Assembly (NCBI RefSeq): GCF_013167455.1
Contig: NZ_CP038328.1
Source of the DNA: Escherichia coli O157:H7
GTDB taxonomy: Bacteria > Pseudomonadota > Gammaproteobacteria > Enterobacterales > Enterobacteriaceae
DNA: 64,000 nucleotides
Direction: 5' to 3' (one strand)
In this document: piece after piece, positions 39,001 through 42,000 of the stretch
How the letters are laid out: each line of letters opens with the position of its first letter
How positions within the stretch are numbered: the stretch's first letter is position 1
Position numbers: made by a program

Positions 39001-42000
39001 TGGCCGACACAGCCGTACTGCCCTTTGCTCAGGTCTGCCTTCGGATGATTCAGCGTACTCATATCCTGCACATCATGCAGGCAGTGGTCGGCCGGAATAA
39101 TATCGTTATATCTGCAGGCAGCCCCACCCGGCGTAACTGTACTGCGGCGCGCCAGCTGTTTAATGCGCGGATCCGGAGCATCGTATGAATCCGGCAGCGG
39201 AAGCCCTTCACCGTAAGCCATGGCATTGGACTGCCCGGCCAGTACGATGACGTAGTACCAATCCGGCTCAGTTGCACCACTGACCACCACATCACCTTCT
39301 GCTGTAATCACCTGCATCAGGGTATAAGGGGTTATGGCCACCGGACTACCAAACGGCTGCCAGCCCTCTTTCAGTTTGTGTGTCAGCTTTTCCGCAAGGT
39401 CTGACGGCGACGCCGCCCTGACAACATCATAATGTTTAAATGTCATTATTCCTCCCCTTTCCGGGATTTTCCTCAACAGTTGCGGGCCACGGTCCGGCCA
39501 CAAGGAGAATCAAAAGAGGAGAACCGCAGCCCGCAAAACGAAAAAGGCCGCGCAGTTGCGCAGCCTTATAAACCCTGGTTAAAATCCACACGATAAAAAT
39601 GACAATGCAAGTATCTCATGCTGTTGCCCGAACCCACTCGGGCTTTTTTTTGCATGTAAAAAGGCTCCTGCGATGAGAAGCCTGGATATATGCCTAATCT
39701 CTGTATACAGCATGATGCCGGGTGCCTCCCGGTGAATTCTGCAATGACCAGACAGAATCCGCAACTTGCCTATACAATACGCAACCAAACATCTGTCATT
39801 ATGCCCCGCCGCTCAGGGGGATTCATCATGCAGGATTTTTTTAACAAACGCTCAGCATGTCAGGCAACAGTCAACTGCCTGAATTGTGAGGCATTTAACA
39901 TTTCACTGTCCGGTGTCTTTCCTGTAATAAAAAGCCCGCAAAAGAGAGTCAGGGCAGATAAGTGTGGTGTGGTGCGTTGTACTGGATTCGAACCAGTGAC
40001 CGATTGCTTAGAAGGCAATTGCTCTGTCCGGCTGAGCTAACAACGCAGAATACCGATAATGGACCGCCACCGGGGACTCCGAATCTCGCACAGGGTGACG
40101 TTCTTTCCTGATGAGCTAGTGGCGGTTGGTGGCCCTTGCTGGATTTGAACCAGCGACCTGGCGATTATGAGTCGCTCGCTCTCACCGCTGAGCTAAAGGG
40201 CCGATTGCTGAATAATAACGACGCATGATTAACTCCGCAATCTCATCCGTTACGAATGATTAAATCCTGTACTTCCCGCACCGTCTGCTCAAAACGTTCA
40301 GTCTCCAGTTCAACGCCAGTTGCACGACGTCCCAGCGCCATCGCTGCTTTCACTGTCGACCCCGACCCCATGAAGAAATCTGCAACCAGGTCTCCCGGAC
40401 GACTGCTTGCGCTGATTATCTGCTGCAACATTTCTGCCGGTTTTTCGCACGGATGTTTCCCTGGATAGTACTGCACCGGTTTATACGTCCACACATCGGT
40501 GTACGGCACCTGCACCGTCACACCGAAATACCGCCGCAGATGCTTATATTCACTCTGCAGCTCCGCATACTGTCGGTTCAGAGAGGCATACGTATCCACC
40601 AGCTGGTGGTGGGGCTTTTCCAGTTCACCCCGCTGATGCTTCTCTTCTGCCACCCGGGCAAACAGTGCCTGTAATTTCAGATAATCGCTTTCGTTCGGCA
40701 GCTGCCACTGACCGGCACTGAACCAGTGCGACACCATGTTTTTCTTTCCTGTGGCATCTGCAATCTGTTTTGCCGTTATCCCCAGGACAGCGCGCGCATC
40801 ACGAAAGTAAGCAATCAGCGGGGCCATCACATGCTGTTTCAGTGTCCTACCCTTCGCCTCATACCCGGCATCTTTCGGACGATACGGCCCCTGATAATGC
40901 TCTGCGAACAGAATGCGCTCTGTGGCGGGGAAATACGCCCGCAGGCTTTCCTTGTTGCACCCGTTCCAGCGTCCGGACGGCTTTGCCCAGATGATATGGT
41001 TCAGCACGTTAAACCGCTCACGCATCATGATTTCGGTGTCAGATGCCAGACGATGGCCACAGAACAGGTAAAGACTTCCGGCAGGTTTCAGCACCCGCCA
41101 GAACTGCGCAAGACACTGGTCCAGCCACTTCAGGTAATCTTCATCACCCGCCCACTGGTTATCCCAGCCCTCGGGTTTCACTTTGAAGTACGGCGGGTCC
41201 GTGACTATCAGGTCAACAGAATTTTCGGGTAACGACCGCATAAATTCCAGGCAGTCGGCGTTGATTAACTCACAACTGGATATTTTTACAGTATTAAGCA
41301 TGGATCATTAAGCCTGTCTCTGATAGGCTCATTCTGCTTTTGCGCAAAGCAGTGGGCCTGAGGTTTGCTTGTGAACCCAACGCATGAGCAGATGGCTGGT
41401 GGGTGCCCCTTACACCCACCAGCCGCCCATTTACCACAAATAAAAAAGCCTTCAGGACTGAAGGCGTCTGTAACAACCAAACTGATAGTCTGCCAGACCC
41501 GCCATAACCAGCTGGGTCAGTATTAACTGGCAGCGTTCGCGTGAAAGGTAAGTATTCTGCGCAATCTCCCCGACTGTCGCCGGGTCGGTAACGCTTAATT
41601 CATTAAACACCACTCTGGCGGTTTCTGTCATATCCTGCTGTTTCAGCATGTCTTTTTCCCTTTTCCGGTTAACGTGACACACCAATAACTCTTGTCGAAA
41701 AAGCCAGCAACCTGAAAGAACGGTATTAATAACCACCAGCGAATTTATTGCGCTGCTGTATATTACGGACACAAAAAAACCACCTTCCGGTGGCTTCCTT
41801 GTGCGAAAAAACTTGCATTTCGCCTCGCGATACAGCTTTGCGAAGCTTACAGGAATTCAAGCTGTTTCTGCGTAAAAAAGCAAGCTTTTTTTATCGAAAT
41901 GAATCGTGCATAGGTACATAAAGCATGTGTTCAGCCACGGCTAACCAACCTGCAATACGTTTCTCACATGTGCTGAAACACCATTCCGGGTGAGTACGAT

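Follow-up and report, generated by a model that had tools for sequence, protein, structure and literature searches.

The window analysed here, a 64,000-nt stretch of Escherichia coli O157:H7 DNA, contains the late region of a non-Stx lambdoid prophage, in a segment that is 100% identical to many E. coli O157:H7 chromosomes. The RefSeq annotation of the locus gives, in order, a Q-like DUF1133 gene, a DNA methyltransferase gene, tRNA-Ile, tRNA-Arg, a SASA-family esterase gene and the holin/lysis genes, with nothing annotated between the two tRNAs. ARAGORN calls only these two tRNAs in the whole 64-kb window, both on the minus strand: an intact tRNA-CAU of the ileZ type at 40127-40202 (tRNA-Ile in the PGAP naming), which is the first gene of the cluster, and an intact tRNA-Arg(UCU) of the argO type at 39970-40046, which is the last. 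Both were confirmed by Rfam at about 71 bits (70.9 and 71.4 bits, respectively), and the argO-type tRNA has no cloverleaf mispairs. In the promoter/terminator scan of 39500-40700, no consensus promoter directly precedes the cluster, and the scan is therefore uninformative on transcription. Directly downstream of the tRNA cluster, Rfam places the sRNA STnc100 at 39652-39860 (-) with 175 bits and the anti-GcvB sRNA AgvB at 39591-39650 (+) with 56.6 bits, just at the gathering score; these sRNA genes belong to the known sRNA-rich late region of EHEC prophages. At 45329-45445 (-) and 46142-46291 (-), an ALIL pseudoknot marks an IS3-family element and a sok antitoxin RNA adjoins hokD. In the matching RefSeq genome, IS1203 interrupts the prophage lysozyme gene, and the prophage is therefore defective for lysis.

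Between the two tRNAs lies a 66-nt element that reads CCGCCACTAGCTCATCAGGAAAGAACGTCACCCTGTGCGAGATTCGGAGTCCCCGGTGGCGGTCCA on the minus strand (40125..40060) and can be segmented as CCGCCAC-TA-GCTC-ATCAGGAAA-GAAC-G-TCACC-CTGTG-CGAGA-TTCGGAGT-CCCCG-GTGGCGG-T-CCA. Sequence, predicted fold and a family covariance model (R1, see below) agree on a perfect 7-bp acceptor stem, formed by the 5' strand at 40119-40125 and the 3' strand at 40064-40070, followed by the discriminator T (40063) and an encoded CCA (40060-40062), so that the 3' part of the acceptor end spans 40060-40070. The element thus has the acceptor stem, discriminator and CCA of a canonical tRNA, exactly as a preliminary description of this DNA had reported for the interval between tRNA-CAU and tRNA-Arg(UCU). 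The same description had the element abutting the CCA end of its neighbour, and it indeed starts only one base, an A on the minus strand at 40126, after the ileZ CCA; a 13-nt spacer (TTATCGGTATTCT, 40047-40059) follows before argO. Inside the acceptor stem, the D-arm remnant GCTC-ATCAGGAAA-GAAC (40100-40116) carries a G-to-A change at 40101 that creates a C·A mispair in the 4-bp stem, seen in the alignment and flagged as a non-canonical pair by R1. The pentanucleotide TCACC (40094-40098) is the remainder of a 17-nt anticodon stem-loop and marks the site of a 12-nt deletion, as found in the alignments and in R1. The T-arm CGAGA-TTCGGAGT-CCCCG (40071-40088) is damaged by a G-to-A change in its stem at 40084 and by an extra G in its loop, which has 8 nt instead of 7. 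The preliminary description had stated that neither a canonical T-arm nor an anticodon stem was present; this holds for the anticodon arm, which is missing, but the T-arm and the D-arm, despite one mispair each and the 8-nt T-loop, are still recognisable.

By standard tests, the element is not a canonical tRNA, taken here as an ARAGORN call or a match to Rfam RF00005 at or above the family threshold of 29 bits. Neither ARAGORN in the window nor Rfam at the gathering score produced a tRNA call for it, and a permissive Rfam search (E<=10) of 40040-40140 returned no tRNA match and no matching family for the element. The plus-strand match to the lncRNA family SMAD5-AS1_3 in that interval was rejected as spurious (12.5 bits against a gathering score of 60). 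No anticodon arm with a 5-bp stem and a 7-nt loop exists, 17 model positions being reduced to 5 nt and the alignments showing a 12-column gap, and neither a T-arm with a 5-bp stem and a 7-nt loop nor a fully paired D-stem is present, given the T-stem mispair, the 8-nt T-loop and the C·A pair in the D-stem. The D-arm and the 3' acceptor strand are only 28 nt apart, and an anticodon arm, a variable loop and a T-arm would need about 38 nt. The 66-mer shows no thermodynamic signal (MFE z=-0.89). When the 246-nt precursor is folded as a whole, the prediction gives the remnant a closed domain of its own, in which the acceptor stem stacks on a 3-bp hairpin; with this predicted 7-bp stem, the hairpin and the CCA, it may be a minihelix-type RNase P substrate. 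Short ORFs of 27-49 aa run over the segment on both strands; we do not regard them as genes, as they are unannotated in RefSeq and overlap the tRNA genes. The 7-bp stem on its own is not evidence, because more than 100 such terminal stems are expected by chance in a window of this size (about 140, from 64,000 positions x ~36 lengths x 4^-7). Judged by sequence comparison, the reality of the element rests on homology and synteny (54.6 bits, E~1e-15) and not on the stem.

The homology became apparent from related phages, in which the preliminary description had placed a third tRNA at the same position. A megablast search against phage records matched 289 of them. In some of these, among them the Stx2c phages LC727876 and its series, the span is as long as in the window; in others it is longer by 10-11 bp and contains an annotated third tRNA, which is named argN in Stx2a_F349 and 'tRNA-Lys' in PPompW and Stx2a_14040. 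ARAGORN calls the longer forms Arg-UCG or 'Lys'-UUU and finds nothing in the short form. When aligned with these three-tRNA clusters, the element falls into the slot of the middle tRNA, between the ileZ-type tRNA-CAU and the next tRNA of the cluster, with a 12-column gap where the others have the anticodon loop and the 3' half of its stem. For the covariance model R1 we used 20 intact alleles of the middle slot. Their cloverleaf shows 97.9% pairing, with four pairs changed on both sides, and in this respect the callable middle alleles act like a genuine tRNA family. R1 matched 40060-40125 (-) over its full span (model positions 1-77) with 54.6 bits and E~1e-15, and flagged the reduction of 17 anticodon-arm positions to 5 nt, one mispair each in the D- and T-stems, and the T-loop insertion. 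The element is therefore matched end to end by a model of intact alleles, with the anticodon arm missing. In global alignments, the nearest intact allele is m1, which has the anticodon UUU, and the UCG alleles are more distant. The difference from m1 consists of 12 nt deleted in the anticodon arm, two substitutions (G to A in the 3' strand of the D-stem at 40101 and G to A in the T-stem at 40084) and one inserted nucleotide, the extra G in the T-loop, all of them at structurally critical places. These alignments identify the parent of the element as the slot's UUU-anticodon allele, not argN-UCG, and the element is not argN in the strict sense of a UCG anticodon, with its own anticodon absent and its nearest allele being UUU. 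It combines descent from a tRNA with disabling lesions, as a pseudogene does. The alignment and the family-specific model thus agree with one of the two possibilities raised in the preliminary description, a decayed tRNA in the slot of the third tRNA. R1 also identifies the element as a tRNA homologue and not as a canonical tRNA whose fold had been mis-parsed.

We surveyed the middle slot across related loci by anchoring on the invariant 3' end of ileZ, collecting 120 IMG/VR loci and 124 parsable clusters. The 124 loci contain 45 distinct middle-slot alleles, for which ARAGORN called 60 Arg-UCG, 22 UUU and 3 Arg-UCU, leaving 39 (about 31%) without a call. These uncallable loci comprise at least three unrelated forms. 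The 66-nt form of the window, hereafter the Delta12 allele, accounts for 11 of the 124 loci. A second form of 80-84 nt, 'class D', occupies about 20 loci and has a predicted 7-bp hairpin with a 3-nt loop in place of the anticodon arm. Class D elements (L005:415-514; L095) retain an intact acceptor stem and D-arm, and the T-arm is canonical in alleles m25 and m26, the former lying in L095 between tRNAs at 3250-3322 and 3072-3145 on the minus strand; in most class D alleles the T-loop has decayed further to G-runs of variable length. The third form, m9/m13, is full length with acceptor mispairs and was found in seven loci (L031, L034, L038, L042, L045, L098 and L111). It keeps the UCG anticodon and shows two C·A mispairs at the top of the acceptor stem, a mispair in the anticodon stem and the T-loop CTCGGGT, and in m13 the CCA is changed to CTA. 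Even the callable middle alleles score only 43-58 bits with Rfam, compared with about 70 bits for the flanking tRNAs, and four other middle-slot forms were missed by Rfam. In the same loci, nucleotide diversity per site was 0.098 for the middle slot, 0.003 for ileZ and 0.013 for argO. The middle slot is fast-evolving and has been inactivated on at least three separate occasions, in genomes that hold redundant copies. Complete loss of the slot was seen in none of the 126 sampled clusters. Several IMG/VR loci carry a compensatory switch in the T-stem of argO (CACTGG…CCAGT versus CAGTGG…CCACT), a sequence pattern that fits strong structural selection on argO, unlike the middle slot. In 20 loci of an alternative architecture that does not end in argO (L017, L023, L041, L043 and others), the order is ileZ, a UUU allele, tRNA-Thr(UGU) or a second UUU tRNA, and tRNA-Gly(UCC). 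Such a slot, with an anticodon that changes among UCG, UCU and UUU, evolution 8-30x faster than in the flanking tRNAs and recurrent inactivation, has modest interest for the evolution of prophage tRNA sets.

The Delta12 allele itself is widespread. The 66-mer occurs in 392 of 5,426 complete E. coli genomes (O157:H7, O111:H8, O121 and others) with one or two copies each, at >=99% identity in 390 of the 392, and PGAP places no annotation on it in any listed genome. An assembly artefact was ruled out by its presence in 392 complete genomes. The 5,426 complete genomes hold 7,274 copies of the ileZ-middle-argO cluster in total. O157 genomes contain 5-9 copies, one or two of which have the Delta12 allele, and two genomes of the IMG/VR sample combine Delta12 with an intact UCG allele located in a different prophage. 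Searching for the deletion junction and the T-arm lesion identified 36 true Delta12 loci on at least five flanking haplotypes, after junction matches in L153 and L154 had been set aside as unrelated chance matches. All 36 loci carry every lesion, and no intermediate with the deletion but intact T-arm, or the reverse, was found among them. The spacer to the ileZ CCA is a single A in all Delta12 loci. The sole internal variant, G66A in 2 of the 36, disrupts acceptor pair seven. With an allele this close to invariant, the population data are uninformative on the function of any RNA product. Four Delta12-bearing loci (L137, L148, L149 and L150) have an upstream ileZ with a G-to-A change in the 3' acceptor strand (…AAGAGCCACCA), which suggests decay of the entire cluster in some cryptic prophages.

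Homology, synteny and lesions show the element to be the disabled middle tRNA of the well-known ileZ-middle(argN slot)-argO cluster of Stx and lambdoid phages; its allele is widely distributed, and the slot decays fast and repeatedly in other phages. The element is most probably an ordinary, unannotated tRNA pseudogene and not a new kind of RNA; we estimate a probability of about 0.8 that it is plainly that. It descends from the UUU allele and was disabled by the 12-nt deletion of the anticodon loop and the 3' anticodon-stem strand, with the G-to-A changes in the D-stem and T-stem and the 1-nt insertion in the T-loop as additional lesions. The remnant is presumably still co-transcribed with both neighbours, and the survival of the 7-bp acceptor stem and the CCA makes continued RNase P cleavage at its 5' end probable; the same cut would also free the 3' end of ileZ. 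The excised 66-nt piece would have no anticodon and a damaged elbow and therefore could not be charged or take part in decoding; in both ArgRS and LysRS recognition, anticodon bases are identity elements. The piece would probably be cleared by the normal decay of defective tRNA precursors. These genomes could afford to lose the middle tRNA, as they have several further cluster copies in other prophages. Three observations favour the rivals of this simple account. First, the allele is nearly invariant (390/392 at >=99%) across at least five flanking haplotypes, which could be a sign of constraint but is explained equally well by recency and block transfer. Second, none of the 126 clusters lacks a middle slot. 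Third, two independent lineages, Delta12 and class D, have lost the anticodon loop and kept the acceptor stem and CCA. Invariance, the absence of slot deletions and the two anticodon-less forms would, however, also be expected from recent origin, transfer of prophage blocks and small numbers. On its own the pseudogene carries little weight; about 7% of complete E. coli genomes, chiefly those of STEC, contain it, and it could be flagged in genome annotation.

The best surviving alternative, although an improbable one, is that the remnant is a retained processing module: decoding is dead, and the acceptor stem, the CCA and a short T-like hairpin are under selection. RNase P cleavage 1 nt after the ileZ CCA would then be needed for efficient 3' maturation of ileZ, and the remnant would act as a structured spacer that keeps the folds of ileZ and argO independent. 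The E. coli enzyme can cut minihelices made of an acceptor stem and T-arm with a 3' CCA, and it resolves some polycistronic tRNA transcripts; such a module is consistent with this general behaviour as well as with the perfect acceptor stem and encoded CCA, the separate domain predicted in the 246-nt precursor fold and the 1-nt spacer in every Delta12 locus. The persistence of a middle element in 126/126 clusters and the acceptor stem and CCA likewise kept by class D point in the same direction. Against such a module, zero hits in the 18 acceptor/CCA positions are expected by chance in about 26% of cases with only about five lesions. Nor is that end inviolate, given the G66A variant that disrupts the acceptor stem and the m9/m13 alleles with two mispairs at its top and, in one of them, CCA changed to CTA. 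Both decayed lineages have a mutated T-loop, which belongs to the elbow recognised by RNase P. Nor is abutment required, since the spacer after ileZ measures 7-9 nt in other alleles.

We consider it doubtful, and somewhat less probable still, that the remnant is a retained mimic of the tRNA acceptor end, RNase P-processed and CCA-bearing, which would serve ileZ maturation or act as a decoy of acceptor-end factors. If this were true, the mimic would have arisen in parallel with the 80-84-nt class D of other lambdoid prophages, in a slot with 0/126 deletions. Quite unlikely is the broader proposal of a functional anticodon-less tRNA-like RNA with a new role, whether as a decoy or sponge for acceptor-end enzymes or toxins or as a precursor-derived regulator, which corresponds to the second possibility of the preliminary description, a processed tRNA-like RNA with another role. 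In its favour are the persistence of two independent anticodon-less forms in many prophages, the wide spread of the allele among STEC lineages, and the wealth of prophage sRNAs in the region, with STnc100 and AgvB directly downstream; counter-defence by phage tRNAs is also known (PMC11555353). Positive support for this proposal was nonetheless not found: there is no covariation or conservation beyond identity by descent, the lesions extend over the D-stem, T-stem and T-loop, and the only internal variant (G66A) breaks the acceptor stem. The predicted stability is ordinary (z=-0.89), no Rfam family matches at E<=10, other lineages of the same slot decay differently, and neither expression evidence nor a paper in its favour was found in the literature searched. 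In that literature, which does not include the original Stx-phage papers, searches for ileZ/argN/argO, 933W tRNAs and prophage tRNA pseudogenes yielded no description of the element. A working non-canonical tRNA mis-parsed by the tools and by the preliminary description alike would accord with the intact acceptor stem, discriminator and CCA. It has against it the 28 nt available where about 38 nt are needed and the negative ARAGORN and Rfam results, and it is effectively refuted by the missing anticodon arm in the R1 alignment.

As a probable tRNA pseudogene, the element can be compared with several known systems. Its slot is that of argN in the ileZ-argN-argO cluster (e.g. Stx2a_F349, AP012530.1), with the same 1-nt distance from the ileZ CCA and the same 13 nt ahead of argO, and its acceptor stem, D-arm and T-arm are homologous to those of argN. 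However, argN is a 77-nt tRNA-Arg(UCG) that both ARAGORN and Rfam (43 bits) can call, whereas the element has lost this arm of the cloverleaf that carries the anticodon, and its sequence resembles the UUU allele more closely than the UCG alleles. The UUU allele m1, which is annotated as 'tRNA-Lys' in PPompW and Stx2a phage records (e.g. LC567818.1) and was found at L017:6127-6200, L003:396-471, L023 and L043 and in 22 of the 124 IMG/VR loci, occupies the same slot. Its acceptor stem CCGCCAC/GTGGCGG, D-loop, variable region TGTG and T-stem 3' strand are identical to those of the element, and only two substitutions separate the two outside indels; unlike the element, which lacks 12 nt there and has further lesions, m1 has a full anticodon arm (loop CCTTTAA) and an Rfam tRNA score of 44.4 bits. 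Integrase insertion into tRNA genes leaves partial tRNA copies at the ends of prophages and islands, and the element resembles such copies in being an unannotated or pseudo tRNA-derived sequence tied to prophages. Copies at att ends are 3'-terminal duplicates located at the prophage boundary, however, whereas the element keeps both tRNA ends around an internal deletion and lies inside the prophage late region, between the DNA methyltransferase gene and argO; an att-site duplicate was accordingly rejected.

The last comparison concerns the parent allele rather than the remnant. The allele m1 has an Arg-type body and is a sister to the UCU allele m20, yet it has a UUU anticodon and is called tRNA-Lys by ARAGORN and in phage records; its anticodon loop CCTTTAA has a C in place of the near-universal U33. 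Phage tRNAs with altered anticodon loops evade the anticodon nucleases PrrC, PARIS and retron-Eco7 PtuAB, phage tRNA-Lys variants that evade PrrC and PARIS are documented, and phage tRNAs are known in counter-defence (PMC11555353 and references therein). The unusual loop with C at position 33 is a likeness to these tRNAs shared by the parent UUU allele and not by the remnant, which has no anticodon loop, and the nuclease-evasion mechanism is therefore inapplicable to the element. To judge from its sequence, m1 may be a tRNA with a switched anticodon, perhaps one that resists the nucleases acting on the tRNA-Lys anticodon; alternatively, it may already be half dead. The UUU allele with its odd loop might relate to counter-defence against anticodon nucleases, a lead on the parent allele of the pseudogene rather than on the remnant itself.
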